From a virus, in IMG/VR virus record IMGVR_UViG_3300044644_001125, positions 83,623-147,622 of that record: 64,000 nt of DNA, one strand, 5' to 3'. Below, piece after piece: positions 467-16,689 of this stretch (within the stretch, counting starts at the first letter, position 1; each line of letters starts with the position of its first letter). Below the pieces are notes generated by a model. The model saw only the letters and a list, made by a program, of their open reading frames with translations, had not been told where the DNA came from and did not search any database. The position numbers and the translations under genes are program-made.

Positions 467-769
467 TTACCCTTGTAGTTCTTCTAGGGTAACTCTGGTT
501 ACTCGTTCAATGATGAGTTGGTCTGGTGTAACCGCAGTGAGTTCGAGATACCAAGCGTCAAAATCTTCATCCTGTGTAAACGTTTTAACTGTTACTTCAT
601 CGGTATCTGAATCAAACTCGAATTCATCAACTAGGTGTGGGTATCCCTCGTGTTCTACTTTGATTTGAAAACCTGTGTTAAGGTTATAATACGTTACGGT
701 TTCTTGCCATTCTGCTTGATTGGCTGTTAATACGTTTACTGCTGTTAATGCGTCTAGGTATGCTTTCAT
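467..769 (-). CDS. hypothetical acidic protein
   Basis: 100-aa ORF. Class-A promoter/UTR cassette at 770-840 (ctccggtagtgctttgttaaggtgg, IR, ttgtcaa). Confidence 0.6.
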   Translation of the reverse strand: MKAYLDALTAVNVLTANQAEWQETVTYYNLNTGFQIKVEHEGYPHLVDEFEFDSDTDEVTVKTFTQDEDFDAWYLELTAVTPDQLIIERVTRVTLEELQG

Positions 770-839
770 CTTGTTTACTCCGGTAGTGCTTTGTTAAGGT
801 GGTGATAGTTTATTTGAAAACTATCACCGTGTCAAGTTG

Positions 840-1766
840 TTAGTGTAATATTTTTGAACCTTTGGTTCTGTTACATCTCCAACATAATGTTTGTAAGTTA
901 CTTTCTACAGTAAAACCGCCTTTCGATAATGGTATAATATGGTCGATTTCTAATAGTAGATTCTTTTCATCATTAGTTGATAGATTACACATTTGGCAAG
1001 TATGGCTATCTCTGTTCTTTATCTTAGTTCTAAGTGCCGATGTCATCAATGCGCGTTGTCCAGCGATACTCTTTTTGAATTTGATGTTATCATTCAAGTA
1101 AGCAATAAATCTGTTTAAGTTTGATATATCGAATTGAATGTCATTTTTCATAAAACTGTTACCACCAGCCGACACGTATTGAAACGAATAAACTGGAAAA
1201 TACAACTCGCTCAAGTCAACATAATTCAAACCCAACTTCTGTTTCAACAATTCTGAATCAAAACGCATAATCAATGGTGGTATGCAATTTGATATACTTG
1301 CAATAATCTCATCTCTTTCAGTGGTTAGTAATCTTTTACCCTCTTGAACCGACCCGTAATCATTTAACATACTTTCAAAGTTCGATAATGCGTCTTCATC
1401 AATTCCAATATTGAAATACTTACACAGGTACTTGAATGGTTGATTGTTTGAGTTTTTCAGCACAGAAGACGAACAGCGATGAACAAATGTATTACTTTTT
1501 CTGATATTTGCCCAGTTTGGTCTTTTGAAATTATAATTGCTACTATCACGCAACGTACTTACACCCATATTGTTAGCTGGTATATGAACGTGAGATTGTT
1601 TTAACTTCTCTATGTACTCGTTTAATTCGTTGCAATTGTTAACATGATAATATACGGTATCGCGTATATTCAAGAAAATCTGACTTTTAAAATATCTATT
1701 TCTATATACTACATATACAATCCACATCACACATAACAATCCAATCACAGCAATTGCCAATTTCAT
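840..1766 (-). CDS. HNH endonuclease with N-terminal transmembrane anchor
   Basis: C-terminal EIDHIIPLSKGG...NLQTLCWRCNRTKG HNH motif. N-terminal hydrophobic helix. Class-A cassette at 1767-1846. Confidence 0.7.
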   Translation of the reverse strand: MKLAIAVIGLLCVMWIVYVVYRNRYFKSQIFLNIRDTVYYHVNNCNELNEYIEKLKQSHVHIPANNMGVSTLRDSSNYNFKRPNWANIRKSNTFVHRCSSSVLKNSNNQPFKYLCKYFNIGIDEDALSNFESMLNDYGSVQEGKRLLTTERDEIIASISNCIPPLIMRFDSELLKQKLGLNYVDLSELYFPVYSFQYVSAGGNSFMKNDIQFDISNLNRFIAYLNDNIKFKKSIAGQRALMTSALRTKIKNRDSHTCQMCNLSTNDEKNLLLEIDHIIPLSKGGFTVESNLQTLCWRCNRTKGSKILH

Positions 1767-1839
1767 CTTGTTTACTCCGTAGTGCTTTGTTAAGGTGGGT
1801 ACATTATAGTTGCAATGTACCCAGTTGTCAAGTTATCTT

Positions 1840-2166
1840 TTAGATGAGTTCACCATCTTCGTCAAATTCTGAATCAAAGTCAACGACTTTGTATTCGTCA
1901 TCTGCTGGTATTTCAGTAACAACATAGTTCAAACGGTCACAGTAATGCCAACCACTTAAGATTGGGTTGTTGCCATAGCACATAATTGTCCAAACACGTT
2001 TAGGGTCTGTTACTTTCATCTGGTTGATATATTCTTCTTCCTCACCGTATGTTTCGTATGAGATGCCACCAAAGCTCGCAAATTCTACATCTTCATCTTC
2101 TGGTAAGAAGTGGTTGATTTGTGGTTTGAATTGTTCTTCGAATTGTTCCCAAGATATTGTTTTCAT
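1840..2166 (-). CDS. hypothetical protein
   Basis: 108-aa ORF. Stop codon embedded in CTAAAAGATAA motif. Class-A cassette upstream at 2167-2247. Confidence 0.6.
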   Translation of the reverse strand: MKTISWEQFEEQFKPQINHFLPEDEDVEFASFGGISYETYGEEEEYINQMKVTDPKRVWTIMCYGNNPILSGWHYCDRLNYVVTEIPADDEYKVVDFDSEFDEDGELI

Positions 2167-2247
2167 GTTTTGTTACTCCGTAGTGCTTTGTTAAGGTGGG
2201 TACAGTATAGTTGTTCTGTACCCAGTTGTCAACGATTATCTTTTAGG
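2167..2247 (-). promoter_or_regulatory. class-A early promoter/5'UTR cassette (representative copy)
   Basis: Gene orientation: CTAAAAGATAAT-cg-TTGACA-17nt(IR GGGTACAG..CTGTACCC)-TATACT-CCACCTTAACAAAGCACTACGGAGTAACAAAAC-ATG. Perfect sigma70 spacing. GGAG SD 9 nt before ATG. Confidence 0.7.
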
Positions 2248-2562
2248 TTATAGTTCTAGTATGAGTTCGTTATTATCGTACTTAGACTTCCAAACCAGTT
2301 TTGCGGTGTACATATTAACGTCTAGTTCTGGTTCAAGCCATGTTAGTTCACTGTTTGACATATCGAATACATCGTCAACTTCTTCCGATGCAAGGAAAGT
2401 TCCAGTGGGAATGATCGACCAATAAGTAACTTGGTTGATGTCATTACTTGATATAATCTCACGACCTTTCTCGATTTTTTCATTAAGAAAGTCTAAGTTG
2501 CCATAGTAAAACAACGGTGTGTCTGAGTATTCTTCGGTGGTTGAAAGTTCGTATAGTTTCAT
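2248..2562 (-). CDS. hypothetical protein
   Basis: 104-aa ORF. Variant leader AGAGGCACTACAATG and CTAAAAGATAAC-TTGACA upstream. Confidence 0.55.
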   Translation of the reverse strand: MKLYELSTTEEYSDTPLFYYGNLDFLNEKIEKGREIISSNDINQVTYWSIIPTGTFLASEEVDDVFDMSNSELTWLEPELDVNMYTAKLVWKSKYDNNELILEL

Positions 2563-2619
2563 TGTAGTGCCTCGTTGTTGTTTAAAGTGGGTGTATTCTA
2601 AAAGATAACTGCTTTACTG

Positions 2620-2967
2620 TCAAGTGTTATATACTAATGGAATTGGTCTAATACCTAGTTGTTTTCTCATTAGAATCGCAATATCTTCTGTTTTTCTTAC
2701 AAGCACTTTACCCTTTTTATTAAGAAGATTCGTTGATGCAACAATTCTGTTGTTGACTACATAAAACGTGTTTATTTTATGCTCGGTGCGTGCATGAATA
2801 TTGAATGCTATTATCTCGTACCCAGCATCTATTTTGTAAGCGTACACACTAGGTGGGCATACCAGTTCTTTTGTCAAAAGTCCAGTAGCAACTCTTTTAT
2901 CTAGTATTGCTATAATTCTGCTTGATTCTTTCTTTAACCATCTTTGTTTAATTTTACCTTTTTTCAT
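2620..2967 (-). CDS. hypothetical basic protein
   Basis: 115-aa ORF with class-A cassette upstream. Confidence 0.55.
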   Translation of the reverse strand: MKKGKIKQRWLKKESSRIIAILDKRVATGLLTKELVCPPSVYAYKIDAGYEIIAFNIHARTEHKINTFYVVNNRIVASTNLLNKKGKVLVRKTEDIAILMRKQLGIRPIPLVYNT

Positions 2968-3057
2968 CTTGTTTACTCCGTAGTGCTTTGTTAAGGTGGG
3001 TATATTCTAAAAGATAACTGCCTCAAAGTCAACAGTTATCTTTTAGGTTAATCTAGG

Positions 3058-3357
3058 TTAAATGTGATAGAATTCTTTAGCCTCTTGGATAATTGCATCG
3101 ATGTCCACTTGGCTATGTTGGGTTTCTACTACTTTAGAAGTGGTACGTTTATGTTTAACATAGCGTAAGGTTTTGAAGAAGTCTTGGTACATTGCGTGTG
3201 ATACAAAGTTACCTTCTACTCTGCCTACCGATGCGCAGGTGTGTAACGCTCCATCTGACGCTTTACTTGTTCTGATACTAAGTTGAAGTTTACCGTTAAG
3301 CATGGTTACTGTTTCTGCTCTCCATGCGTTGCCATATTTATTGATTAGTGTTTGCAT
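3058..3357 (-). CDS. hypothetical protein
   Basis: 99-aa ORF with cassette variant (IR GCGAGTAGT..ACTACTCGC) upstream. Confidence 0.55.
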   Translation of the reverse strand: MQTLINKYGNAWRAETVTMLNGKLQLSIRTSKASDGALHTCASVGRVEGNFVSHAMYQDFFKTLRYVKHKRTTSKVVETQHSQVDIDAIIQEAKEFYHI

Positions 3358-3426
3358 TGCTGTTTTCCTGTAGTGCTTTGTTAAGGTGCGAGTAGTATAT
3401 AACTACTCGCTTTATATGTCAACAGT

Positions 3427-3624
3427 TTATCTCAAATGTTCTTCTAGTAATTTCAACTGTTTTTTAGATAGGTTAAGTTCAGCTAATACGTTTCTAAAAG
3501 ATGATGTAAGATAACCTGTAACAAAGGCATAGTTCACCTCTCCTTTGTTAAAATCTGCCGATGCTTGTTCTGCTGTTGTTTTCATATGGTCGATTACTGT
3601 TTCTAATAGGATTGGGTTTGTCAT
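3427..3624 (-). CDS. hypothetical protein
   Basis: 65-aa ORF with class-A cassette upstream. Confidence 0.5.
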   Translation of the reverse strand: MTNPILLETVIDHMKTTAEQASADFNKGEVNYAFVTGYLTSSFRNVLAELNLSKKQLKLLEEHLR

Positions 3625-3699
3625 CGTCTTTACTCCGGTAGTGCTTGTTAAGGTGGGTACAGTATAGTTGTTCTGTACCCATTTGTCAACAGTTATCTT

Positions 3700-4284
3700 T
3701 TAGTCTTCGAGTTCTTCTTCGCGTTCCCATTCTGCCATGTTTTCATATATAGCAAATGCCTCGTTAATGGCTTGTGGTATATGCTTTTTAACCCATGCAC
3801 TATCACCATCAATGCTATATTCATCAACGTCTGTGTATTCTTCATTGCCTTCGTAATAACCACAGAATGCGCAACCACCCTCATAGAAGTAAGCCTCGAT
3901 TTCAAATCCCAATGCGGCTAATGCGTTATAACCTTCTACTGGTGGACTCCATGCACTATCGAAATCTAATGTTAATGTATCGCCTTCTAGTGTGCTTTCT
4001 GTATCAGTTCCGCCAATATCCCACTTCGTACCCCATTTGGCATTGGCAAACTCGTACCAATCAACGTATCCGTATTTTTCTTTATTTGCTTTTTGCTTTG
4101 CCTCTAATTCGAGTTGTTGCTCTGTACCCTCACCATAGAATCCACTGGTTGTGTTTCTTAGTTCTTCTGGGATTGGTATAAACTCGTTAAGTAGTTTGCC
4201 ATTGTCAAACGCCTCTTGAGCGCGGACAAGCATTGCAGGGTCTTTGTGTTTTAAAGTTGCTTTGTTATTGCACCAGTTTGGCAT
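3700..4284 (-). CDS. MPNWC-start family protein (DUF1281-like); paralog of 46206-46769
   Basis: Starts MPNWCNNKATLKH. Shares IPIPxEL and Trp-rich core with 46206-46769. Cassette upstream. Confidence 0.6.
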   Translation of the reverse strand: MPNWCNNKATLKHKDPAMLVRAQEAFDNGKLLNEFIPIPEELRNTTSGFYGEGTEQQLELEAKQKANKEKYGYVDWYEFANAKWGTKWDIGGTDTESTLEGDTLTLDFDSAWSPPVEGYNALAALGFEIEAYFYEGGCAFCGYYEGNEEYTDVDEYSIDGDSAWVKKHIPQAINEAFAIYENMAEWEREEELED

Positions 4285-4369
4285 GGTCGTATCCTCGTTG
4301 TAGTGTTTAATGTAGTGCCTTGTTTCAAGGTGGTGATAGTATATTCTTTTATCACCACCTTGTCAATCT

Positions 4370-4780
4370 TTATTTTGCTAATAATCCAATAACTACTGGT
4401 GTTAATTCTTTTACATCATAGCCGTTGCAATACCACCATTGTTTGCCTTGTAGCAGGTAGAAGTATTCGCCACCCTTACGGAATCTAAGCCATTCTTCTA
4501 CATTGGCATGGTTACGACTTTCAATACCAGTTTCGCCTCTATCACGTCCATAGAACGTGGTGCTTTTGACTTTAGTAGCACGGTCAAAGTTGTGTTTATG
4601 ACCTACAAAATCTTTCAGTGAACTAACGTCACCGTTGGCTAGTAGTTGGACTGTTTTTCTTTTGTTGTAGTGTTCTGCTAAGGTTTGTCCTACGCCTTCT
4701 AGGTAGCCGTCCCAGTGGCAGTAAATTGATTGAATTGTTCCGTTTGGTAATACCATTGCGATTGTGCTTCTTGTTGCCAT
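4370..4780 (-). CDS. hypothetical protein; paralog of 56498-56941
   Basis: Shared TTFYGRD(R/L)G(E/D)T and YCHWDG/YVHQNG motifs. Cassette upstream. Confidence 0.6.
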   Translation of the reverse strand: MATRSTIAMVLPNGTIQSIYCHWDGYLEGVGQTLAEHYNKRKTVQLLANGDVSSLKDFVGHKHNFDRATKVKSTTFYGRDRGETGIESRNHANVEEWLRFRKGGEYFYLLQGKQWWYCNGYDVKELTPVVIGLLAK

Positions 4781-4851
4781 TGTCTTTACTCCGTAGTGCT
4801 TTGTTAAGGTGGGTATATTCTAAAAGATAATACCCACCGTGTCAATACTTT

Positions 4852-5787: not shown

Positions 5788-5861
5788 GATTATTCCTCGT
5801 AACTAAAATCAATTATTATACGACATTATCTTTTAGTTTTTACCCATTGTCAATACCCTAG

Positions 5862-5891
5862 ACAAAAAAATGCCCAGCTACAAGAACTGGG
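5862..5891 (-). terminator. rho-independent terminator downstream of tRNA unit
   Basis: Minus strand CCCAG-9nt-CTGGG followed by CAUUUUUUUGUC. Confidence 0.6.
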
Positions 5892-5911
5892 CGAGGTGAG
5901 TGTACATCAGG

Positions 5912-6025
5912 TGCTAATATCAGGCACTACTCCGATACTAGCCTCCTTTGGGTGGTAGATCCGCAAGGCACTACTCCTGCAAATCTATCTGGGTTGCCAA
6001 TACAAGGCACTACTCCTGCATTGAC
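5912..6025. repeat. three direct copies of a GGCACTACTCC(T/G) core
   Basis: caggcactactccgata, caaggcactactcctgca x2, lying between terminator and tRNA. The core resembles the conserved leader GCACTACGGAG. Confidence 0.4.
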
Positions 6026-6233
6026 GGGTACTACCTTAACACAACGAATTGTCTGTTTCATGTCTATTCTCCTAAGAGTAAAACTGTTTGATTACTTTCT
6101 TTGACTGGGTTCTATTCAACGCAATGCCAGTGGATAGAAAGTATCTTATATAATCTTCAACGAATTGTTCACGTTTTGCTTGTCTAATTTGTAATTTGCT
6201 TTTTGCTTTCATTGTCTTTACCTTTATGTTTGT

Positions 6234-6386: not shown

Positions 6387-6632
6387 TTATTGGTTTGTTA
6401 ATTGTTCATCTAATGCACGTTTTGCAATTACTGCCCATAAGTAAGGGTGGCTAAATTCAGTATCATTCAATGCTTGTTCAACACGTTCATTGTCATCAGC
6501 ATTCAAAGGTATTTCCAATTCAGTTACAGTTTCATCAATGAATGCTAGATACTCTGTGCCTCTAACATGACTGATAAGGTCAAATATTCTTTCTACTGCA
6601 TTTTCTGTTAATGTTATTGTATAGGTTTTCAT
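6387..6632 (-). CDS. hypothetical protein
   Basis: 81-aa ORF. AGAGGCACTACAT-ATG leader variant and CTAAAAGATAAT upstream. Confidence 0.55.
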   Translation of the reverse strand: MKTYTITLTENAVERIFDLISHVRGTEYLAFIDETVTELEIPLNADDNERVEQALNDTEFSHPYLWAVIAKRALDEQLTNQ

Positions 6633-6703
6633 ATGTAGTGCCTCTTTGTTTTATTAATGTGGTGATAGTCTAAAAGATAATCACCACATTGTCAAGTTAT
6701 ATA

Positions 6704-7087
6704 TTAAGCCGCTAATGCGTATGCTTTGTTCCACTGTCCGATATTGATGTCAACATAAAAGCCTCTATCGTGATAATCTGACATAATGTCCGAATTATCA
6801 TAGTTGCCTTCATTCATGATTTCAAGTGCTTTAGTCAAGAACTCGTGTGCAACACCTTTGTTAAACTGGTCGTCTAACCAATAAGGATTGACTTGTATAT
6901 AATCTTTGCTGTAGTTACTGTCTACTTCTTTTAACGCGCCATAGAAGTCGATTTTACCACCTTGTATATTAAGAACGATGGTGTAGCAATGTTTACGCGC
7001 CACAGTTGCTTTGATACCGTATTCTTTTGCTAATGCTCTTAATCTTACTGCTTTCAACTCTTTTTGTTCTTTACTAATGTATGGCAT
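6704..7087 (-). CDS. hypothetical protein
   Basis: 127-aa ORF with class-A cassette. Confidence 0.55.
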   Translation of the reverse strand: MPYISKEQKELKAVRLRALAKEYGIKATVARKHCYTIVLNIQGGKIDFYGALKEVDSNYSKDYIQVNPYWLDDQFNKGVAHEFLTKALEIMNEGNYDNSDIMSDYHDRGFYVDINIGQWNKAYALAA

Positions 7088-7162
7088 GATTTTTACTCCG
7101 TAGTGCTTTGTTAAGGTGGGTACATTCTAGTTTAAAATGCACCCAAAGTCAAGCATTATCTT

Positions 7163-7483
7163 TTAGATATATTCACGTCCTGTTTCTTCAATCAACGCAG
7201 GTGTGAACCAATCACGGTATCTGGTGGCATTCTCACGACCAGCACCCCAGCCAAAATCTTCTACCCAGTATAACTGTTCACCATCAAACTCATCTATCTT
7301 ACCTAAGATAACAAACTGTTTACCAAATACGTCATCATCACTAAAGCCTTGATTGGCTACTGCATCATCTTGAATGAAGTCTAAGAAGTGTGCCAAACCC
7401 ATTGCGTGGTCTGAACCATTGTTCAGTAACCATTCTTTTTGTTCTCTAAGTAACGCCCAGTCTATGTTTTTAAGTGTAATCAT
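7163..7483 (-). CDS. hypothetical protein
   Basis: 106-aa ORF with class-A cassette. Confidence 0.55.
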   Translation of the reverse strand: MITLKNIDWALLREQKEWLLNNGSDHAMGLAHFLDFIQDDAVANQGFSDDDVFGKQFVILGKIDEFDGEQLYWVEDFGWGAGRENATRYRDWFTPALIEETGREYI

Positions 7484-7550
7484 TTTCTATTCTCCGTAGT
7501 GCTTTGTTAAAGTGGCTCTAGTATCTCATATAAGAACCACCTTGTCAACT

Positions 7551-7726: not shown

Positions 7727-7737
7727 GTAGTGCCTCT

Positions 7738-7941
7738 TTAGATTGTTTGATATATTTCTCGCTGTACTGTTTCTTCGTATGCGTCTGCGCAGTCCTCTTG
7801 ATTTGCATCGCATTCGCTACACGCTAATTGTGATTTCGGTCTGACGTAATTGTCATTGCATTCACATTCCCAATAAGAATGGTTTAGCGTAATCAAACCG
7901 TAGTTTTCAATCACATCACCTTGTGCGTTTGTGTCTAACAT
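7738..7941 (-). CDS. Cys-rich small protein (zinc-ribbon-like CxC..CxxC)
   Basis: 67-aa ORF with WECECNDN...CSEC. Class-A cassette upstream. Confidence 0.55.
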   Translation of the reverse strand: MLDTNAQGDVIENYGLITLNHSYWECECNDNYVRPKSQLACSECDANQEDCADAYEETVQREIYQTI

Positions 7942-8016
7942 GGTTATTGCTCCGTAGTGCTTTGTTGAGGTGGGTACATTCTAAAAGATGATGTACCCAA
8001 AGTCAAGCATTATCTT

Positions 8017-8241
8017 TTAGTCAAACGCTTTGACTATTGAATCAATAAGATTGTCCATATATTCCACCACTTCACTGATAGTATCATCTTCAAATTTTTC
8101 CCATATCGTAGCATAATCAATACAGTCAAAACTATCTGCTAATTCATTTGATAACATTTCATACGTTTTAACGGCATCATTATCATATTCAGATAAGAAT
8201 GTGTTAATTGCGATTTCAATTGCTTTTTCTTTTGTAGTCAT
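8017..8241 (-). CDS. hypothetical acidic protein
   Basis: 74-aa ORF with cassette. Confidence 0.55.
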   Translation of the reverse strand: MTTKEKAIEIAINTFLSEYDNDAVKTYEMLSNELADSFDCIDYATIWEKFEDDTISEVVEYMDNLIDSIVKAFD

Positions 8242-8316
8242 GTCTATTACTCCGTAGTGCTTTGTTAAGGTGCGAGTAGTTTAATCTATCTCACACCAGT
8301 TGTCAACTATTATCTT

Positions 8317-8517
8317 TTAGTTTGCGGTTAACAAATCTAAAAATTCTTGGTATGGAATCATTACTTCAAATCCCATGTTGTTATCATAAACTACCCATGT
8401 TGAATTTTTAGATGACAGGCTTATGAACTTAATGAGTGCCGTGTTTAGTATTACTAATGTTTCATGCGTTGCAGTTGAACCGCGTAGTTTTTCTGTTTTA
8501 GTTGCTTTAATGAACAT
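8317..8517 (-). CDS. hypothetical protein
   Basis: 66-aa ORF with cassette. Confidence 0.5.
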   Translation of the reverse strand: MFIKATKTEKLRGSTATHETLVILNTALIKFISLSSKNSTWVVYDNNMGFEVMIPYQEFLDLLTAN

Positions 8518-8587: not shown

Positions 8588-9088
8588 TTATATAATCATT
8601 GTTTTTGGTATTCTGTAAACAATACCACTTGCAACACCTAATAGCGGTTTAACGCTTACCACTTTCACTACTGCGACATATGAATTCCTCAACTGGATAA
8701 TGTCACCAATCATCAAGTTAGCGGCACGTTTGCGTGTTTTACTAGCATTTTCGTGAAACTTAACTACATTATCGCGCCATTCTTGGCAAGTAACTGTTGC
8801 CTCTTTTAAAAACTTTAGTGGGCAGTTATATTGATAAGGGTGCATACTTTCACACATATCTTTGTAACCATAGCCTTTATCGTTTTTAAAGTATTCAAGT
8901 CTGAATAGCAGAATAACCTTTTGACCTAACACATTGTTAGGATTATAATCAACGTCTTTTTGTGATACTGTGTACAAACCCCATAGGTTATTGCCAACCA
9001 ACGACCATTGAGTTATTGCATCATTGTCTAATTTAATTTGTCTAACTAATGCTTGTTTGCCAGTGTTGCTATAAGATAACCAACCCAT
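8588..9088 (-). CDS. hypothetical protein
   Basis: 166-aa ORF with class-A cassette at 9089-9160. Confidence 0.6.
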   Translation of the reverse strand: MGWLSYSNTGKQALVRQIKLDNDAITQWSLVGNNLWGLYTVSQKDVDYNPNNVLGQKVILLFRLEYFKNDKGYGYKDMCESMHPYQYNCPLKFLKEATVTCQEWRDNVVKFHENASKTRKRAANLMIGDIIQLRNSYVAVVKVVSVKPLLGVASGIVYRIPKTMII

Positions 9089-9285
9089 TGTCTTTACTCC
9101 GTAGTGCTTTGTTAAGGTGGGTACAGTATAGTTGTTCTGTACCCAGTTGTCAACTCTTTTTTTTCAACTATCAGTAAGTAAGTCTACCATTATTAAGATT
9201 TAACGTATTAACGAAAAATGTACTGGCTCAAGCCTTGTATTGGGTGCTTGAGGACACCCGCAGACCCACTTACTGATAGCTCTTA

Positions 9286-10893: not shown

Positions 10894-11142
10894 TTAAGCT
10901 GGGTTAAGTATCTGTAATCCGTAGATTAAATCTTCGTCTGTAATCTCATCGTATGAGAGTATGTATTGTTCGCCATCATCAACTGTATGTACATGAATCA
11001 TCTTATCCTCTGGTGATAAGCCATCAATCACATAATCAACGTCATCTTTTACAATTAAGAATGCTTGTTCGATTAAGGTATTAAGTTGTTCTCTTGTTCT
11101 CATTGGTAGTGCCTCTTTGTTAGTGTAGTGGTATGGTATCAA
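10894..11142 (-). CDS. hypothetical acidic protein
   Basis: 82-aa ORF with AGAGGCACTACCAATG leader. Confidence 0.55.
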   Translation of the reverse strand: MIPYHYTNKEALPMRTREQLNTLIEQAFLIVKDDVDYVIDGLSPEDKMIHVHTVDDGEQYILSYDEITDEDLIYGLQILNPA

Positions 11143-11162
11143 TTATCTTTTAGGTTGTCAAC

Positions 11163-11411
11163 TTATTTCTTACTGTCCATTAAGTCTTGCATACCGTCTA
11201 AGTGGTAGATTCGATTCTTATGGAATACAAACCCACCTATGTTTGTAAAGTAAATTTTGCAGTAGTTAGTTGCAATGTCTTTTTGGAAGTGGGTGAATAC
11301 TGCAATACCCGCAATCAACGCGCCAATCGCAATACCACTAACAAATGCTCTTAATCCCCTAAAGTTATCTGATACTTCTACTAATCTTGGTTTCTGTTCG
11401 TAAGTTGCCAT
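11163..11411 (-). CDS. small membrane protein
   Basis: 82-aa ORF with one TM helix. AGAGGCACTACAGATG leader. Confidence 0.55.
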   Translation of the reverse strand: MATYEQKPRLVEVSDNFRGLRAFVSGIAIGALIAGIAVFTHFQKDIATNYCKIYFTNIGGFVFHKNRIYHLDGMQDLMDSKK

Positions 11412-11443
11412 CTGTAGTGCCTCTTTGTTAAGTTGTGGCTATT

Positions 11444-11632
11444 CTAAAAGATAATCGAACTGCTGTCAACAACTTTCTGTAACAAGGTTCTCATGTCTTG
11501 GCATTCGCTGTCATCTTCTTCTGAAAACTCATAACCAAACGCAATAATATATTCTAAGGCAGTTTTAATCAAGTCTACTTCATTTGCGTCAAAGTTCATG
11601 TTACTGTACTCTATAGTTATGTTTAAGGTCAA
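11444..11632 (-). CDS. hypothetical acidic protein
   Basis: 62-aa ORF. CTAAAAGATAATCG..TTGACAGCAG upstream. Confidence 0.45.
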   Translation of the reverse strand: MTLNITIEYSNMNFDANEVDLIKTALEYIIAFGYEFSEEDDSECQDMRTLLQKVVDSSSIIF

Positions 11633-12116: not shown

Positions 12117-12575
12117 TTAGTAAAATTCCGGCATGAATTCTTCTTCAAAGTCATCGATAAAATCGAGTTCATTAAAGTCATTATCTGCAAACTGTTCCAT
12201 GTCTACATCACTTGGTGTATAATTGCCTTTCTTTGCCGCTACATAGCTTGTAACTCTATCAACCAGTCTTTCCATTGGCTTGTCTAAGTTCTTCCCAGTG
12301 ACGGTGCCTGTGTTGCATTCTAACTTGATGTCAAATAACACATCCGCCAAGCCTACTGAATATTTAATGTCGCAATCGAATAAGAAGTTTACCGCGCCAC
12401 TGGTGTTAGATTTTAAACCGTTTTGATAGTAATCATAGTATACGCGTCCAATGGCTCTCATCATCTCACCTTCAACACTTCCAGCATTACCTGCTTTTGG
12501 TACGATTTCTTTTAATGCGTTATATTCGTTTTGCATTTTGCCTAGATTGTTCCAGTATATGTTTTTCATTTTCAT
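12117..12575 (-). CDS. hypothetical protein
   Basis: 152-aa ORF with class-A cassette. Confidence 0.6.
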   Translation of the reverse strand: MKMKNIYWNNLGKMQNEYNALKEIVPKAGNAGSVEGEMMRAIGRVYYDYYQNGLKSNTSGAVNFLFDCDIKYSVGLADVLFDIKLECNTGTVTGKNLDKPMERLVDRVTSYVAAKKGNYTPSDVDMEQFADNDFNELDFIDDFEEEFMPEFY

Positions 12576-12642
12576 TTACTCCGTAGTGCTTGTTAAGGTG
12601 GTGATAGTTTAATTGGAAACTATCACCGTGTCAAGTTATCTT

Positions 12643-12806
12643 TTAGTCTTCAGATTCTCTGCGGTCTAATTCAATGGCTAGTAACTCTTGCATAACTTCA
12701 GTAAAGGCATCTCTTGATTCTAATTCTGAATACAACTCAAACTTGAGTTCCAGTTCATCGTATGTCATTTCACTGATTTGGTTTTTGATTTCATTTATGT
12801 TCATTG
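12643..12806 (-). CDS. hypothetical acidic small protein
   Basis: Start at internal ATG 12804-12806 preceded by AGAGGCACTACCAATG leader. Confidence 0.45.
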
Positions 12807-12868: not shown

Positions 12869-13066
12869 TTAGATGATACAATCGTTATCTGCATCAATTT
12901 CCAATGTTACGCATTCGGTGGAAATATCGTCACCATTATCAATCCATGCCAATCCAACACGATTTTTATCTATTGTGAATTGTTCATCTGCGTATGCAAC
13001 CGATACCACTACCGGTAAGTCTGCATCGAATGTGGATAATACTGCAATTAGTTCTTTGATTGTCAT
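12869..13066 (-). CDS. hypothetical protein (cassette flanked by direct repeats)
   Basis: 65-aa ORF with class-A cassette. Bracketed by hairpin-containing direct repeats at 12826-12868 and 13141-13182. Confidence 0.55.
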   Translation of the reverse strand: MTIKELIAVLSTFDADLPVVVSVAYADEQFTIDKNRVGLAWIDNGDDISTECVTLEIDADNDCII

Positions 13067-13146
13067 TATCTTTACTCCGTAGTGCTTGTTAAGGTGGTGA
13101 TAGTTTAATTGGAAACTATCACCTTGTCAAGTTATCTTTTAGGTTA

Positions 13147-13277: not shown

Positions 13278-13517
13278 TTATTGGTCTTCGTATGCTCTGG
13301 CTAGTAACTCTGCCGTTTTAAAGATATGGTGAACTCTATCATCTTTTAGTGCGATTTCAAGAGCCTCCTCGTCATCAATCGAGAAGTCATTGTCAAAGTG
13401 TTCTACCATGTACTCCTCGAAACTATCTGCCTCAGATTCTAGCAAGTAGTCTAAGATACTAGACAAACGGTTTAAGTTGGTTTCTGTTAAGGTGATTGTT
13501 CTGTATTGTTCGCTCAT
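13278..13517 (-). CDS. hypothetical acidic protein
   Basis: 79-aa ORF with cassette. Confidence 0.55.
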   Translation of the reverse strand: MSEQYRTITLTETNLNRLSSILDYLLESEADSFEEYMVEHFDNDFSIDDEEALEIALKDDRVHHIFKTAELLARAYEDQ

Positions 13518-13586
13518 TGTCTATTACTCCGTAGTGCTTTGTTAAGGTGCGAGTAGTATATTACTACTCGCTAAGTTTGTCAACTT

Positions 13587-13838
13587 CTATTCATGGTACA
13601 TTTTACCGTTAAATTCTACTGCTTGTGGTTCATCGTCAGAATCTGCCCAATCAGTCCAGTAAATCGCGTCATCCGCGTAAGCATCTTCGTAAGTGGCATA
13701 TCCAGCCGCAATACTCCATTCAACTGCATCTTTGATATTCTTAAAGTATTGGTCTGCCTCGCTGGTAACCCATCCTGCGTTCATACCTTCACCAGTGATT
13801 GAACAAACTCGCATCCAAGTTTTAAATTCTGTAGTCAT
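13587..13838 (-). CDS. hypothetical protein
   Basis: 83-aa ORF with cassette. Confidence 0.55.
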   Translation of the reverse strand: MTTEFKTWMRVCSITGEGMNAGWVTSEADQYFKNIKDAVEWSIAAGYATYEDAYADDAIYWTDWADSDDEPQAVEFNGKMYHE

Positions 13839-13922
13839 TGTCTTTACTCCGTAGTGCTTTGTTAAGGTGCGAGTAGTATATTACTACTCGCTTTAAATGT
13901 CAACTATTTTTTTCTTCGTACT

Positions 13923-13951: not shown

Positions 13952-14245
13952 TTAATCGATGGTTCTAACTGCTCTGACGTATCCGTCACCGTAACTCTTA
14001 CCGTAGTAACTCTGAATCCCGATTGACATATGATTACTCCATGCGTTGACATCATTATACTCAGTAGATGACCAGTAGTAATCTTCCTCAAACTCATTTT
14101 CCGATTCATAAATCTGCGTTAGTTCGTCTGTGGTTGGTAAACGCCATCCTGTTTTCTCGTTGATATTAAGCGAAAAGCAGTATTGGCTGGCATCATACCA
14201 GTTGGCTTGAATCTCTGTTTCTTTTGGTGCGATTTCAATGTTCAT
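13952..14245 (-). CDS. DUF1566/Lcl C-terminal domain-like small protein
   Basis: MNIEIAPKETEIQANW..YCFSLNINEKTGWRLPTTDEL..YYWSSTEY..AW..YVRAVRTID. Confidence 0.65.
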   Translation of the reverse strand: MNIEIAPKETEIQANWYDASQYCFSLNINEKTGWRLPTTDELTQIYESENEFEEDYYWSSTEYNDVNAWSNHMSIGIQSYYGKSYGDGYVRAVRTID

Positions 14246-14319
14246 ATCTTTTACTCCGTAGTGCTTGTTAAGGTGGGTACATTCTAGTTGAAATATACCC
14301 AGTTGTCAACTATTTGTTT

Positions 14320-14580
14320 TTAGATTATTCTGGTTTGTTTTATTACTGCACATTCGATTCTATCTGCTGAAATTTCTTCACCAAACTCGCCATCCGTGCC
14401 TTTGAATAGTACAGTGCTACCAGCTACTTCAACTAAAGCAACCTCGACCACTTCGCCACAATCTTTAACATATATTTGATAGTCTTTGGCAACCTCGTAA
14501 TCGATTGAATCCGCATAATCCGAGTATTCTACCAAGTATGGCATGATTTCAGCTAAGGTGGTTTCTGTCATTGTGTACAT
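14320..14580 (-). CDS. hypothetical protein; paralog of 15294-15557
   Basis: Both start MYTMTETT and end IECAV(I/M)KQ(T/N)R(I/L)I. Identical upstream cassettes. Confidence 0.55.
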   Translation of the reverse strand: MYTMTETTLAEIMPYLVEYSDYADSIDYEVAKDYQIYVKDCGEVVEVALVEVAGSTVLFKGTDGEFGEEISADRIECAVIKQTRII

Positions 14581-14652
14581 GGATATTCTCCGTAGTGCTT
14601 TGTTAAGGTGGGTATATTCTAGTTGAAATATACCCAGTTGTCAAGTTATCTT

Positions 14653-14889
14653 TTAGGTTAAATCGTGTTCTAATTTAGGGTATGTTGCGCGTAAGGTTTC
14701 AATCTTTGCTATTAAGGCAGTTATATCTGCTACTATCTCGTCCCTAGCAGTGACTTCACTCTCTGTCAGTGACTTTAAGTAATCAGTGTCATAGATGTCA
14801 AACATAGCTTTAATGTCACGTCTGTATGACTGTACCATGCTATAAAGGTCTGACCGTTTTTGAATGCCGTTCCAGTATAAACTACTCAT
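14653..14889 (-). CDS. hypothetical protein
   Basis: 78-aa ORF with cassette. Confidence 0.55.
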   Translation of the reverse strand: MSSLYWNGIQKRSDLYSMVQSYRRDIKAMFDIYDTDYLKSLTESEVTARDEIVADITALIAKIETLRATYPKLEHDLT

Positions 14890-14960
14890 TGGCTTTACTC
14901 CGTAGTGCTTTGATAAGGTGGTGATAGTTTAATTGAAAACTATCACATTGTCAATCTTTT

Positions 14961-15218
14961 TTACCCGTGAGTTAGTTCTGCCTCAGCATCTTCTAGTGCA
15001 TCAGCGACTTCTTCTTTAAAGTTGATATTATGACAATCACAGTAACGAATAATATCTACTAACAAATCTGCTACGGTTGTTTCATAACCATAATCTTCTA
15101 ATTTTAATATTGCCGCAATCTTTTCAACACCAGTGTAAAAAGAAAACTTTTTAAATACTTCTTCTCCTTCTGGCATTTCCTGTAGTTCTGCTAACACAAG
15201 TTTAATCGAATTGTTCAT
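14961..15218 (-). CDS. hypothetical acidic protein
   Basis: 85-aa ORF with cassette. Confidence 0.55.
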   Translation of the reverse strand: MNNSIKLVLAELQEMPEGEEVFKKFSFYTGVEKIAAILKLEDYGYETTVADLLVDIIRYCDCHNINFKEEVADALEDAEAELTHG

Positions 15219-15293
15219 GTTGTTTACTCCGTAGTGCTTTGTTAAGGTGGGTATATTCTAGTTGAAATATACCCAGTTGTCAACTATTTGTTT

Positions 15294-15557
15294 TTAGATT
15301 AGTCTGTTTTGTTTCATTACAGCGCATTCAATACTATTGACTTTGGCAGTACCGCATTTACCACCACCAATGTTTCTGAATGTCACGCTATCACCTAAGA
15401 CTTCTACTGTTCCTACTTCTACCACATCACCAAACTCTTTTACATAGAGTTGAATATGACGTGCTGGTTCGTATTGGAAGAATCCATTGTCCTCCTCGTC
15501 AAACAATTCCAAGTAAGGTAATAAATCAGCAAAGGTGGTTTCTGTCATTGTGTACAT
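15294..15557 (-). CDS. hypothetical protein; paralog of 14320-14580
   Basis: See 14320-14580. Confidence 0.55.
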   Translation of the reverse strand: MYTMTETTFADLLPYLELFDEEDNGFFQYEPARHIQLYVKEFGDVVEVGTVEVLGDSVTFRNIGGGKCGTAKVNSIECAVMKQNRLI

Positions 15558-15624
15558 GGATATTCTCCGTAGTGCTTTGTTAAGGTGGGTACATTCTAAA
15601 AGAAAATACCCACCATGTCAATCT

Positions 15625-16338
15625 TTATTTTGTGCGAATAACGAATCCGCTAGTATCTTTTTTCGCGCGTCCTTTGGCTTTCAATCCAATAACCAAGTCT
15701 AGGTTAGTATTATTGAATCTTAAGTCATCCAAGTCACCATCAACTACAGGAACACCATTCCAAGTGGCGGGTACTTCATCGAATACCACTGCAATAGAGT
15801 AACCTTGTTCCAATGCTTTCATTACGTCTGCATCGTTTGATTCTGCTCTACTGAATGTTAAATGGTAGTTACCTAGGTGCTTAACCTTACGATTAAGAAT
15901 CTTACTGTAGTCGTAGAATTGTACTGTAGGGAAGTGTTCAAACACGTTCTTACCACCAACGTAAATGTTTTCCCATAGAATGTCACTTGTACCATTTAAA
16001 CGGAATACAGGTGTCATACCTTTACGCTCTGCTTGTTTAATGGCTTTTGTTATATCAGTGATTAAGGTTTCCATGAAAACCTCTCTGTTTGTTTTAAAGA
16101 ACACGGTTCTACGTTTACGAGCCTCTTGTACCGCGTTAGTGGTTTCACCTGCTTTAAACATACCACCATGTCCAGCAGTATTCAAACAAGCCGCTCTGCA
16201 TCCAGCAGTAGCCTTTGGGCAAGTGTTCATTACACCAGATAAGTCACTTGGTGCTAGGTGAAGAATGTAGGATTTATAACCTTGTGATTCACCTTTAATG
16301 ATTTTAAGGTTTGAAGTAGTGAGAAGTGAAAATGCCAT
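15625..16338 (-). CDS. hypothetical protein with Cys-cluster (CPKATAGCRAAC)
   Basis: 237-aa ORF with class-A cassette. No motif confidently assigned. Confidence 0.6.
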   Translation of the reverse strand: MAFSLLTTSNLKIIKGESQGYKSYILHLAPSDLSGVMNTCPKATAGCRAACLNTAGHGGMFKAGETTNAVQEARKRRTVFFKTNREVFMETLITDITKAIKQAERKGMTPVFRLNGTSDILWENIYVGGKNVFEHFPTVQFYDYSKILNRKVKHLGNYHLTFSRAESNDADVMKALEQGYSIAVVFDEVPATWNGVPVVDGDLDDLRFNNTNLDLVIGLKAKGRAKKDTSGFVIRTK

Positions 16339-16409
16339 TGTAGTAACTCCGTAGTGCTTTGTTAAGGTGGGTACATTGTATTCTCAATGTACCCATTTGT
16401 CAAATCTTT

Positions 16410-16604
16410 TTATCCGATTGCTTGTAACAAGTACGCGTATGTGATTTCTTTCTTCGTTCCTTTTGGTAAACCTAGCAACTGGCAAGCCATTGTATTAGCC
16501 GATTTTCCACGACCTTTCAATCCTTTGATTTCTAATCCAAGTGCTGATTTCAAGGTTAATAACTGGAATCTGTTGATTTGTTCTGGTGTAGTTAATACGC
16601 TCAT
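16410..16604 (-). CDS. hypothetical basic small protein
   Basis: 64-aa ORF. Upstream: hairpin-A8-TTGACA...TATACC-leader. Confidence 0.5.
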   Translation of the reverse strand: MSVLTTPEQINRFQLLTLKSALGLEIKGLKGRGKSANTMACQLLGLPKGTKKEITYAYLLQAIG

Positions 16605-16689
16605 CTTTGTAACTCCGTAGTGCTTTGTTAAGGTGGGTATAGTTTAGTGGATCTTTACCCTGTTGTCAACTCTTTTTTTTCTTCTTATT

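Follow-up and report, generated by a model that had tools for sequence, protein, structure and literature searches.

Twenty-nine genes on the minus strand of this DNA are preceded by one recurrent module, and we consider it probable that these modules are early-gene expression cassettes of the PeSL (promoter early stem-loop) type, carried by an uncultured, lytic jumbo phage from freshwater. The window, by which we mean the whole stretch of 64,000 nucleotides that was analysed, holds 29 copies of the full promoter-plus-leader cassette on its minus strand, from 0.77 to 16.7 kb, and each module spans about 70-85 nt in the order A-rich tract or 12-mer CTAAAAGATAAT, TTGACA-N17-TAnAnT, inverted repeat, leader, ATG. 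A recurrent module had been claimed in a first-pass annotation, and comparison of the upstream regions confirms it with counts far above chance: TTGACA-N17-TATAMT with at most one mismatch has 47 matches (46 on the minus strand) against about two expected. A TAnAnT -10 box and a 17-nt spacer are present in 29 of 29 modules, and TTGACA is exact or within one mismatch. Of the promoter as originally described (TTGACA-17 nt-TATA(A/C)T), the -35 box and the spacer are therefore retained, whereas the -10 box is better written TA(T/G/A)A(C/A)T, since TAGAAT and TAAACT are at least as common as TATA(A/C)T. The cassette is also less widespread than had been proposed ("about 50" genes; "almost every" minus-strand gene): a sigma70-like promoter of some kind precedes about 57 minus-strand genes across the whole window, but the full cassette stands in front of 29, and it is found on roughly two thirds of the approximately 45 genes in 0.4-17.6 kb.

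In all copies GGAG (or AGGA/GAGG) serves as the Shine-Dalgarno (SD) sequence, 7-8 nt ahead of the ATG. Leaders of type A read ACCUUAACAAA-GCACUAC-GGAG-N7-8-AUG, and the second leader variant that had been noticed earlier is indeed present as type B, AGAGGCACTAC-N1-3-ATG, with five promoter-linked and two promoterless copies. In 12 cases the upstream gene terminates at a TAA within CTAAAAGATAAT; AAAAAAGAG-type tracts are seen in other copies. The modules, together with a tRNA-Met promoter of the same type, are as follows.

2164..2246 (-), exemplar cassette head: 12-mer 2246-2235; -35 TTGACA 2232-2227; -10 TATACT 2209-2204
2224-2216 and 2205-2197 (-), exemplar hairpin: 5' arm TGGGTACAG and 3' arm CTGTACCCA
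2197-2167 (-), exemplar leader: predicted +1 2197; GCACTAC 2186-2180; SD GGAG 2179-2176; ATG 2166-2164
767..835 (-), type A: hairpin GGTGATAGTTT/AAACTATCACC; -10 TAAACT
1764..1843 (-), type A: upstream 12-mer with stop of upstream gene; hairpin TGGGTACATT/AATGTACCCA; -10 TATAAT
2560..2623 (-), type B leader (..CGAGGCACTACAATG): reverse 12-mer in spacer, overlapping -10; without hairpin
2965..3046 (-), type A: forward and reverse 12-mers around -35; weak hairpin
3355..3422 (-), type A, AGGA as SD: hairpin GCGAGTAGT/ACTACTCGC
3622..3703 (-), type A: upstream stop in upstream 12-mer; hairpin TGGGTACAG/CTGTACCCA
4282..4366 (-), long variant leader (ACCTTGAAACAAGGCACTAC...): hairpin AGGTGGTGATA/TATCACCACCT
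4778..4845 (-), type A: hairpin GGTGGGTAT/ATACCCACC with reverse 12-mer in its loop
6310..6360 (-), tRNA-Met promoter of the module type: 12-mer, TTGACA, reverse 12-mer overlapping TAGAAT
6630..6695 (-), type B: hairpin ATGTGGTGAT/ATCACCACAT, a compensatory variant extending into the leader
7085..7166 (-), type A: stop codon in upstream 12-mer; hairpin with G.U pair
7481..7548 (-), type A: -10 GATACT; hairpin GGTGGTTCT/AGAGCCAC with U.G pair
7939..8020 (-), type A: 12-mers either side of -35; hairpin TGGGTACAT/ATGTACCCA
8239..8320 (-), type A: hairpin GGUGUGAG/CUCGCACC with one U.G pair, perfect in relative L009
8515..8582 (-), type A: hairpin GCGAGTAGT/ACTACTCGC
9086..9153 (-), type A: A-tract 5' of -35; hairpin TGGGTACAG/CTGTACCCA
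11101..11161 (-), type B: forward 12-mer in spacer; without hairpin
11409..11469 (-), type B: reverse 12-mer overlapping -10; without hairpin
12573..12646 (-), type A: stop codon in upstream 12-mer; hairpin GGTGATAGTTT/AAACTATCACC
13064..13142 (-), type A: upstream 12-mer; hairpin class as at 12573..12646
13515..13583 (-), type A: hairpin GCGAGTAGT/ACTACTCGC
13836..13903 (-), type A: hairpin class as at 13515..13583; GCGAG..CGAGC hairpin and A-tract upstream
14243..14309 (-), type A: hairpin TGGGTATATT/AATGTACCCA with U.G pair
14578..14656 (-), type A: stop codon in upstream 12-mer; hairpin TGGGTATATT/AATATACCCA
14887..14954 (-), type A: hairpin GTGATAGTTT/AAACTATCAC
15216..15283 (-), type A: hairpin TGGGTATATT/AATATACCCA
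15555..15621 (-), type A: hairpin GGTGGGTA/TACCCACC
16336..16403 (-), type A: hairpin TGGGTACATTG/CAATGTACCCA
16602..16669 (-), type A: weaker hairpin; GCGAG..CGAGC hairpin and A-tract upstream

From consensus rules we infer where transcription starts, that it is early and that host sigma70 is used. Host sigma70 RNA polymerase would fire each cassette just after infection from the A of ACCUUAAC, about 7 nt 3' of the -10 box, and at the tRNA-Met promoter this register places the predicted start (6311) 2 nt ahead of the mature tRNA 5' end. A standard open leader would then give every cargo gene equal and efficient ribosome loading. As for the upstream element with its stop codon, it is present as annotated, but its 12-mer is not specific to the modules, since CTAAAAGATAAT occurs genome-wide on both strands (50 exact copies and 34 with one mismatch). 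A late promoter is ruled out for the 12-mer, which is found in both orientations relative to genes and also inside promoter spacers, and inverted 12-mer pairs were rejected as RNA hairpins, the variant positions (A/G at 10, T/C at 12) being uncompensated between the arms. It is likelier to be a protein site, with two AraC-type proteins as candidate binders.

The only typed gene encodes an AAA ATPase whose closest relatives are those of PA5oct-type jumbo phages (52% identity), and not those of a T4-type phage as had been implied at first. PA5oct itself depends on the host RNA polymerase, is rifampicin-sensitive and has TTGAC/TATAATA promoters, and gene-sharing networks link PA5oct-type jumbo phages only distantly to the T4-likes. 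Since 20 kb compared by megablast with 50,697 phage records gave no nucleotide match, and the cassette leader was not found among 185,579 prokaryote genomes, this appears to be an undescribed phage known solely from metagenomes. Pfam matches were obtained for a handful of the 46 early ORFs in 0.1-18 kb (seven families in all). The cargo consists mostly of unrelated small ORFans with few paralog pairs, such as 14320-14580 and 15294-15557 (49% identity). Plus-strand genes, which are probably late, are preceded by GGATAAATA motifs, resembling T4 late promoters, or by CTAAATA-like motifs.

The inverted repeat (8-12 bp) begins in the spacer, crosses the -10 box in its 3' part and ends at position -1/+4, at the predicted start. 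Of the 121 unique modules of the window and its relatives, 82 have a stem with 8 bp or more of perfect pairing, against 0.2% of shuffles, and the mean z of the window modules is about -6. Hairpin and leader are associated: a fold of -10 kcal/mol or below is reached by 24 of the 29 leader-bearing promoters of the window, as against 2 of 29 among the other sigma70-like promoters. The arms fall into at least eight sequence classes, all kept complementary; the three that had been quoted in support of a palindromic repeat with varying sequence were all recovered, plus at least five more. Examples of covariation between the arms are GGGTAC/GTACCC vs GGGTAT/ATACCC, GCGAGTAG/CTACTCGC vs GCGGGTAG/CTACCCGC and AGGTGG/CCACCT vs ATGTGG/CCACAT, and the 5' arm follows the -10 variant (..ATT with ..AAT, ..AGT with ..ACT). 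Arms of 6-12 bp enclose loops of 3-12 nt, in a register that varies by class, with paired positions summing to 43-48.

For palindromes that lie over the -10 box and the discriminator, the classic position for a repressor, one may also consider that they act as operators in DNA, at which dimeric repressors of phage or host origin shut the early promoters, the classes being different specificities. The window does encode two AraC-type HTH_18 proteins (22149-22742 and 23279-23983) and one WYL protein, and the bias in hairpin mismatches that points instead to RNA is weak (sense-strand G.U vs A.C of 9 vs 2 at stringent settings, noise at lenient ones). However, one would then have to assume at least eight specificities for as many arm classes, and it would be hard to explain why arm length, loop length and register all vary, why one gene changes class between near-identical relatives, and why single compensatory changes preserve the pairing, not a fixed sequence. 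AraC-type proteins, moreover, bind asymmetric sites, not palindromes. We consider this explanation very improbable. A further scenario, which we judge exceedingly improbable, is that the hairpins are promoters for a phage RNA polymerase reading extruded DNA hairpins, as does the virion RNA polymerase of N4, with the sigma70 hexamers incidental. The hairpin centre is located some 12-15 nt ahead of the predicted start, loops of 3 nt occur in some copies, and the early promoters of N4 are of similar geometry; yet here the hexamers and the exact 17-nt spacer are conserved while the hairpin sequence is free, the 5 of 29 modules without a hairpin keep the hexamers, hairpin-less hexamers drive 29 other genes, and the typed gene is nearest that of PA5oct, a user of the host polymerase.

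A canonical intrinsic terminator can be ruled out for the module hairpins, whose stems are followed by ACCUUAACAAAG without a U-tract. None of them was listed on the sense (minus) strand in a consensus terminator scan, and the only sense-strand hairpins with a T-run of 6-7 nt are those at 5892-5872 and 17552-17534. As these two nearby terminators have a U-tract that the module stems do not, the terminator role shown for the PeSLs of phage RB49 (PMC2839356) is not simply transferable here. Because each hairpin precedes the start site of its own cassette, it would exist as RNA only in read-through from the upstream cassette, where it might attenuate or insulate transcription, or cap the 3' end. 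The excess of G.U over A.C is suggestive of such a role at the RNA level, although it is small and a DNA-level role may still apply.

Comparison with related metagenomic contigs indicates how the cassettes move. Inside the modules, which cover 20% of the region, lie 68 of the 88 synteny breaks (p ~7e-31, to be read in the light of the modules filling most of the intergenic space, so that insertion or deletion of whole genes partly predicts breaks in modules). In both L004 and L024, position 4304 is joined to 818 through a chimeric module, with seven cassettes skipped. A single gene has 4-6 different promoter/hairpin variants across relatives, and the spacer is just 76% identical in orthologs whose coding DNA is at least 95% identical. 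A cassette outside the main array adds a further case.

52404..52732 (-), duplicated-promoter cassette: 88-aa gene at 52407-52673 between two TTGACAACATCATCTTTTAGATTTAAACT promoter copies

At this locus relatives have one promoter copy and the gene is absent. At the level of sequence, these comparisons show the shared 70-85 bp head to be a portable homology patch, at which recombination inserts, deletes and swaps cassettes as well as promoter/hairpin variants. REP/BIME palindromes and integron attC sites are likewise intergenic hairpins, placed between genes or cassettes, in which pairing is kept and sequence is free; REP is associated with the protection of mRNA 3' ends and attC with cassette exchange. 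Unlike those, the present hairpins are short perfect stems inside a promoter, without the extrahelical bases of attC and with no integrase, and exchange here apparently proceeds by homology, as the chimeric modules indicate.

The leader behaves in another manner. It is 99.4% identical in relatives where the coding DNA of the orthologs is 70% identical, which supports the earlier description of a distinct and unusually long conserved leader. Its 24-nt core, with at most three mismatches, is present in 19 copies (none expected), all on the minus strand, and every one of the 31 GCACTAC heptamers on that strand is in a leader. Type A leaders are G-poor and unstructured; the MFE is 0 in most copies, and the lack of structure goes well past what shuffling predicts. 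The leader core and the 12-mer are kept in L001, which otherwise has no nucleotide similarity to the window, and the leader also in L028 and L021. Natural leaders without the heptamer exist as well, e.g. ACCUUAACAAACCGGAG.

Gene conversion could contribute to this invariance, and one may ask whether the whole array is functionless repetition, the trace of recent tandem duplication and gene conversion of one promoter region. Near-identical copies are indeed crowded into 16 kb, a few cargo genes are paralogs and recombination between copies clearly happens. Nevertheless, the cargo genes are mostly unrelated, and conversion alone would homogenise leader and spacer alike, whereas the leader is 99% identical and the spacer 50-76% identical yet self-complementary. 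Nor would one expect a leader free of structure well past shuffled expectation, or its persistence, core and 12-mer together, in the otherwise dissimilar contig, and in the two others that keep the leader. Mere duplication is thus very improbable.

PeSL-type cassettes, the reading that we prefer, have a published definition with which the modules can be compared. PeSLs consist of an AT-rich tract with the upstream stop, a near-consensus sigma70 promoter, a stem-loop mostly between -35 and -10 or over -10, and a 3' SD and ATG; they occur in ORFan-rich hyperplastic regions, at indel/replacement junctions of close relatives (PMC2839356, PMC4122927), and excised mini-circles are a further criterion (PMC2839356). 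Every sequence-level feature of this definition was found here, namely promoter, upstream stop tract, stem-loop, SD and ATG, ORFan cluster and indel junctions, and the breakpoints, chimeras and duplicated-promoter cassette agree with it, so the PeSL-like interpretation first put forward from the letters is upheld. The elements of RB49/phi1 (Arbiol et al. 2010, PMC2839356) are alike in their near-perfect TTGACA-N17-TATAAT, AT-rich tract with upstream stop, stem-loop placement, 3' SD and ATG, conservation over about 100 nt, and dense ORFan arrays with indel/replacement junctions whose crossovers fall inside the element. They differ in that the present phage is not a known T4-like virus, its stems are of mixed-sequence classes, not GGGG/CCCC, and end at the predicted start without a U-tract, and its 5'UTR is invariant with a separable heptamer tag. 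In PST/T4 and nt-1/KVP40 (Comeau et al. 2014, PMC4122927) the PeSL/PmSL are again composite elements with a lineage-specific consensus and stem, in unbroken ORF runs with an element in each intergenic space, and the degraded 'half' elements near indels resemble the promoterless leaders at 7733 and 12813; there, in contrast, the stem-loop lies just upstream of a weaker promoter, while here it lies over the -10 box of a nearly perfect consensus.

A possible reader of the leader is encoded 3' of the tRNA-Met gene.

5863..6050 (-), candidate structured RNA 3' of tRNA-Met: unpaired 5' tail UGUUAAGGU at 6041-6033
6025-5996, 5989-5954 and 5942-5913 (-), three RNA hairpins
6013-6007, 5974-5968 and 5930-5924 (-), invariant GUAGUGC loops, one per hairpin
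5892-5872 (-), intrinsic terminator of the RNA, with U-tract

Across six variants of this RNA, 97.6% of cells are paired and compensatory double changes occur in 14 of 49 pairs, a level that 0 of 500 shuffles reach; slid controls are 31-41% paired. The GGAGTAGTGCC repeats had at first been read as a repeat-peptide ORF, a reading replaced after the covariation analysis; a 44-aa ORF with an SD overlaps the RNA in four of the six variants, its start being missing in L010/L013. An Rfam scan of the window returned tRNA-Met alone, and no family for 5863-6050, at both gathering and relaxed thresholds. The GUAGUGC loops and the tail UGUUAAGGU are exact complements of both conserved blocks of the leader, and among all 7-mers of the RNA only those in the tail and in the three loops find complements among the leaders (23-28 leaders each, the others fewer than three). 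Duplex energies between RNA and leaders are modestly better than with shuffled leaders (z -1.8 to -3.2). Among the recovered contigs we found no lineage with a changed leader heptamer in which co-variation of the loops could be followed, and in L155, the only more distant homologue contig recovered, the whole system is absent. A scan of viral contigs for triple GTAGTGC was unspecific, loci from L035 onward being unrelated.

From these complementarities, the three-hairpin RNA may act in trans as a regulator of all cassettes. Transcribed from a module promoter together with tRNA-Met, it would pair through its GUAGUGC loops with GCACUAC beside the SD or the AUG, and through its tail with ACCUUAACA at the mRNA 5' end, so that a new cassette would join the control of the RNA simply by recombining behind a module. 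That the leader is frozen as a common target, and that the RNA could switch every tagged early mRNA together, in its translation or its stability, we give not quite an even chance; that the leader is an address tag by which the phage RNA shuts off or stabilises some 30 unrelated early mRNAs together is put forward more tentatively. Binding via exposed 7-nt loops is also the mode of ColE1 RNA I/RNA II, CopA/CopT and seed-type sRNAs, and the candidate has three stem-loops with 8-nt loops, 7 nt of which are complementary to a single-stranded target near the SD, and an intrinsic terminator. Unlike RNA I and CopA, however, it is trans-encoded and would have about 30 targets sharing one tag in an unstructured leader, and its pairing is predicted.

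Alternatively, the leader might be read by a protein or by the transcription machinery rather than by an RNA: by a translational repressor or endoribonuclease of early mRNAs in the manner of RegA/RegB, by NusB/NusE at a boxA-like antitermination tag, or as a downstream promoter region required during promoter escape. Behind almost every sigma70-like promoter of the window, with or without the heptamer, CUUAAC(A) is found at about +3 to +9, the SD of the leader, GGAG, is the RegB cleavage motif of T4, and T5 early promoters provide a precedent, with functional homologies in the transcribed region. The leader block CCUUAACAA is also similar to the 3' half of the boxA of rrn, UGCUCUUUAACAA. Against the rrn/lambda boxA (GCUCUUUAACAA-type) the leader reads CACCUUAACAA, which fits in the 3' half and matches at 9 of 12 positions, but the GCUCUUU core is absent; RegA, RegB, MotA and AsiA families were not found among the 133 ORFs of the window, which is part of the genome. 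Each of these readers leaves unexplained why exact complements of both leader blocks should fall in those parts of a covarying RNA that are unpaired and invariant, and we consider this alternative unlikely.

If regulation by the three-hairpin RNA is true, the phage would possess an RNA regulon whose defining feature is a portable 5'UTR, and this would account for a leader kept at 99% identity amid shuffling surroundings; the candidate anti-leader RNA bears on the long-standing question of how phages silence early gene sets post-transcriptionally. The modules can also be viewed as natural standardised expression parts, in which a consensus promoter is combined with an insulating hairpin and a 5'UTR free of structure. 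Descriptions of PeSL cassettes have until now come solely from T4-like myoviruses, whereas the same architecture is found here in a freshwater jumbo-phage lineage. This suggests that promoter-hairpin-leader linkers may be a common route by which large lytic phages gain, express and discard small accessory genes, and such linkers would leave the neighbouring genes undisturbed.

A recurrent module, in which a sigma70-like promoter, an inverted repeat and a conserved leader precede the ATG, heads many of the small minus-strand genes of the early region, and its layout can be read from one representative copy:

2247-2164, minus strand: exemplar cassette, CTAAAAGATAAT-cg-TTGACA-actgggtacagaacaac-TATACT-gtaccc-ACCTTAACAAAGCACTACGGAGTAACAAAAC-ATG; the upstream ORF's stop codon, TAA, directly precedes the 12-mer CTAAAAGATAAT

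Such recurrence is real and far above chance: a 24-nt leader core, allowing at most three mismatches, occurs 19 times (0 expected), exclusively within 779-16636 of the minus strand. TTGACA-N17-TATAMT, allowing at most one mismatch, occurs 47 times (about 2 expected), and the minus strand holds 46 of these. All 31 minus-strand copies of the leader heptamer GCACTAC lie immediately 5' of a start codon. By our own ORF calls, a sigma70-like promoter stands 12-120 nt ahead of 57 minus-strand genes, and 29 of these genes also have the conserved leader, counting the one at 7548 with its -10 of GATACT. The full cassette is therefore carried by about 29 genes, rather than the approximately 50 proposed in the first-pass annotation, and it precedes roughly two thirds of the genes at 0.4-17 kb, so that the module recurs as described but not in front of almost every gene. 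The second leader variant noticed there does exist: about 24 of the 29 leaders are of type A (..AAAGCACTAC-GGAG-N7-8-ATG) and five of type B (..AAGAGGCACTAC-N1-3-ATG), with two further, promoterless type-B copies at 7733 and 12813. The -10 box, previously given as TATA(A/C)T, takes that form in the exemplar (TATACT) but overall is TA(T/G/A)A(C/A)T. In a conservation profile the -35 is invariant, the spacer variable, the TA-A-T of the -10 kept and the next six bases variable, and from the predicted start onwards CACCTTAACAAAGCACTACGGAGTAA is nearly invariant.

By sigma70 rules we infer that this start is the A of ACCUUAAC, 7 nt past the -10 box, a register supported by the tRNA-Met gene, where the same promoter type places the predicted start 2 nt 5' of the mature tRNA end. 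The leader from predicted +1 to AUG measures 31-34 nt and contains little G; most copies have an MFE of 0, versus -1.7 for shuffles. Its long conservation is borne out in relatives, since among orthologs with 70% coding identity the leader is 99.4% identical and the SD-to-ATG spacer 67%. Some relatives' cassettes have heptamer-free leaders, ACCTTAACAAAC(C/T)GGAG; GCACUAC is thus inserted between the 5' block and the SD as a separable unit.

For the inverted repeat, the suggestion that a palindrome is kept while its sequence differs also holds. Of 121 unique modules, taken from the window and from related contigs, 82 have a perfect stem of 8 bp or more, which only 0.2% of shuffled controls attain; this stem pairs the 5' half of the spacer with a segment running from the last -10 bases to position -1/+4. 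The arms fall into at least eight sequence classes, the -10 variant is tracked by the 5' arm pairing with it, and some classes are linked by single compensatory changes:

GGGTAC/GTACCC versus GGGTAT/ATACCC
GCGAGTAG/CTACTCGC versus GCGGGTAG/CTACCCGC
AGGTGG/CCACCT versus ATGTGG/CCACAT

One may also consider that the inverted repeat is a dimeric operator of fixed geometry; however, register, loop length and arm length all vary between arm classes, which argues against this explanation. As RNA, 24 of the 29 window modules fold at -10 kcal/mol or below (mean z about -6), compared with only two of 29 leaderless sigma70-like promoters, so that hairpin and leader form a single element. Where a good stem has a mismatch, this is G.U on the sense strand in nine cases and A.C in two, which hints, weakly, at the sense-strand RNA as the folding species. 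Lying 5' of the predicted start, the hairpin would enter RNA only when transcription reads through from the preceding cassette. No U-tract follows the module hairpins, ACCUUAACAAAG being found instead; the region does have two canonical terminators, and these carry 6-7 U.

Chained BLAST of related metagenomic contigs against the window at 1-17.6 kb gave 88 non-redundant synteny breakpoints, 68 of which fall inside modules, the modules making up 20% of that DNA (binomial p ~7e-31). As modules occupy most of the intergenic space, this excess mainly shows that the whole cassette is the unit of change. Examples, by contig, are:

L004 and L024: 4304 joined to 818, seven cassettes missing
L023: 8515 joined to 7120
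L007: 15564 joined to 13869
L005: 4312 joined to 3707
L025: 119 nt missing, flanked by two direct 12-mers

The module at the L024 junction is chimeric: its promoter and hairpin are those of the 4366 copy, joined to a different leader and to the gene starting at 769. Across relatives one gene can have 4-6 alternative promoter/hairpin variants, and where the coding DNA of orthologous cassettes agrees at 95% or more, identity is down to 76% in the spacer/hairpin and 74% in the upstream tract. Beyond the early region, an 88-aa gene (52407-52673) is flanked by two copies of one promoter, and relatives have at this locus a single promoter and no gene. Breakpoints, chimera and variant promoters before the same gene all favor the earlier view of mobile, gene-shuffling cassettes.

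In T4-like phages, promoter-early stem-loop (PeSL) elements comprise an upstream stop codon within an AT-rich tract, a strong sigma70-like promoter, a stem-loop between -35 and -10 or overlapping the -10, and an SD followed by ATG; they cluster in ORFan-rich hyperplastic regions, at indel junctions, and for RB49 both termination of transcription by the stem-loop and the presence of excised mini-circles have been documented (PMC2839356, PMC4122927). The window modules show every sequence-level and comparative feature by which PeSLs are defined, and cassette exchange is directly evident between relatives, in line with the PeSL interpretation originally offered. They differ in that the hairpin position is tied to the predicted start site, the stem classes are many and covarying, the 5'UTR is frozen and bears the heptamer, and the 12-mer is genome-wide. 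The hairpins have no U-tract, and a terminator role such as that in RB49 calls for caution here. The data support a PeSL-type element with its own features in an undescribed phage lineage.

For 20 kb of the window, megablast gave no hit among 50,697 phage records, nor did the leader hit any of the 185,579 prokaryote genomes searched. Leader and 12-mer were found again in a few IMG/VR contigs and in 25 from metagenomes; IMGVR_UViG_3300044655_001269 matches the window at 94-98% identity, other related contigs at 70-90%, and one contig (L001) has only the module and 12-mer in common with it. The 46 ORFs at 0.1-18 kb include few mutual paralogs and only a handful with a Pfam match (seven families altogether). 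The AAA ATPase is nearest to that of Pseudomonas jumbo phage PA5oct (52%), a phage that relies on the RNA polymerase of its host and whose promoters read TTGAC/TATAATA. On the plus strand, GGATAAATA (38529, 40440, 47996) lies 20-70 nt 5' of genes 38557, 40515 and 48021, and CTAAATATAA (35930) ahead of gene 35967; judging by their sequence these resemble T4-type late promoters (TATAAATA), which suggests a gp55-like late sigma factor encoded elsewhere in the genome.

The 12-mer occurs in 50 exact and 34 one-mismatch copies (about 1 expected) on both strands of the whole window, 71% of them intergenic, while intergenic DNA is only 16.5%. It stands forward, directly 5' of the -35, in 12 cases, and reversed, in the spacer over the -10, in nine cases at one fixed register and five nearby, its TAG contributing to a -10 of TAGAAT/TAGACT; four promoters have both placements. 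A forward copy can also supply the -10, as in TTGACA-N17-GATAAT at 5853 and 9349, the latter within 9154-9357 (minus strand), 200 nt without an ORF that also hold a GGGTAC/GTACCC and a GCGAG hairpin and may encode another non-coding transcript. Elsewhere the 12-mer forms inverted pairs with 2-16 nt loops, or single sites, for example:

428-454: 12-mer site
38161-38198: 12-mer site
50432-50583: direct array of 6-7 copies, 5' of the DUF2201/VWA gene

All relatives, L001 included, keep the 12-mer. Variant positions in paired copies are uncompensated, so its reader is likelier a sequence-specific protein. A WYL-domain protein and two AraC-family proteins are the window's only evident sequence-specific DNA binders, the latter two being no more than candidates for reading the asymmetric 12-mer:

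22149-22742 and 23279-23983, minus strand: two paralogous AraC-family (HTH_18) proteins

Several other elements were observed:

9287-9308, 13924-13945, 16691-16712, 40330-40351, 47810-47934: examples of a second intergenic hairpin family, GCGAG-N4-GNTA-N4'-CGAGC
13952-14245, 25247-26138, 33229-35263, 39753-40282, minus strand: examples of a 22-member paralog family
52966-54346: 1.4-kb segment with a TnpB/Cas12f-like gene (TNB domain; 53024-54307, plus strand)
42370-43110 (plus strand), 49184-52323 (minus strand), 28872-29588 (plus strand) and 31590-32378 (minus strand): cargo outside the early region

The GCGAG hairpin (21 copies on both strands, 0.12 expected) often lies between a gene end and the next promoter's A-tract, and two copies (40330-40351, 40395-40416) precede a homing-endonuclease-like gene (40515-41822). 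Its 4-bp inner stem covaries (TGCC/GGCA, GCAC/GTGC, CACC/GGTG, CCAC/GTGG, AGCC/GGCT, GCCT/GGGC), and its flanks could form tandem G.A pairs. The paralogs are 70-175-aa proteins, 24-86% identical, nine with a Pfam Lcl_C/DUF1566 match; several end in ..PVRDLKDD*, from an in-frame 12-mer variant, and several of the genes have ATTATCTTTTAG 8-9 nt ahead of the ATG. The TnpB/Cas12f-like segment is missing from an otherwise 98% identical relative (L157), and is thus a recent insertion in this phage. Among the cargo are a caspase-domain protein; a MoxR-type AAA ATPase accompanied by GroES (Cpn10) and a DUF2201/VWA protein; a protein that weakly matches a phage protein-kinase family in PHROG (E ~2e-7); and an SPFH/Band7 protein.

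A possible partner of the leader is encoded within the early region itself:

5863-6050, minus strand: structured RNA, located 3' of both tRNA-Met and a conserved 46-aa ORF and closed by a strong terminator (5892-5872)
6072-6212, minus strand: the basic 46-aa ORF (MKAKSKLQIRQAKREQFVEDYIRYFLSTGIALNRTQSKKVIKQFYS), between tRNA-Met and the RNA

Six variants of this RNA from relatives align as three hairpins and a terminator, with stems that vary in sequence by lineage and keep their pairing (97.6% of cells paired; double changes in 14 of 49 pairs); none of 500 shuffles matches this covariation, and slid controls are 31-41% paired. Since the stems hold many G.U pairs, the fold belongs to the minus-strand RNA. 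Its 8-nt loops, AGUAGUGC, are invariant and its unpaired 5' tail, UGUGUUAAGG, is conserved; no Rfam family matches it, and a 44-aa ORF (MKQTIRCVKVVP...) overlaps it in four variants, the start being lost in two. The RNA contains three sense-strand copies of GUAGUGC, the loop sequence exactly complementary to the leader heptamer GCACUAC, and its UGUUAAGGU complements ACCUUAACA at the leader 5' end. When all its 7-mers were compared with promoter-proximal leaders, complements were limited to its four unpaired segments, the 5' tail and the three loops (23-28 leaders each; fewer than three for other 7-mers). Predicted RNA-leader duplexes show only a modest advantage over those formed with shuffled leaders, and a search for a lineage with an altered heptamer, in which the loop might co-vary, found none. 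We tentatively give somewhat less than an even chance to 5863-6050 being a trans-acting anti-leader RNA. The neighboring 46-aa ORF has no family match; as pure speculation, its place beside a multi-loop RNA might recall a Rop/Rom-type helper of kissing complexes. The chief point of interest is whether the invariant leader serves as an address for this structured RNA.
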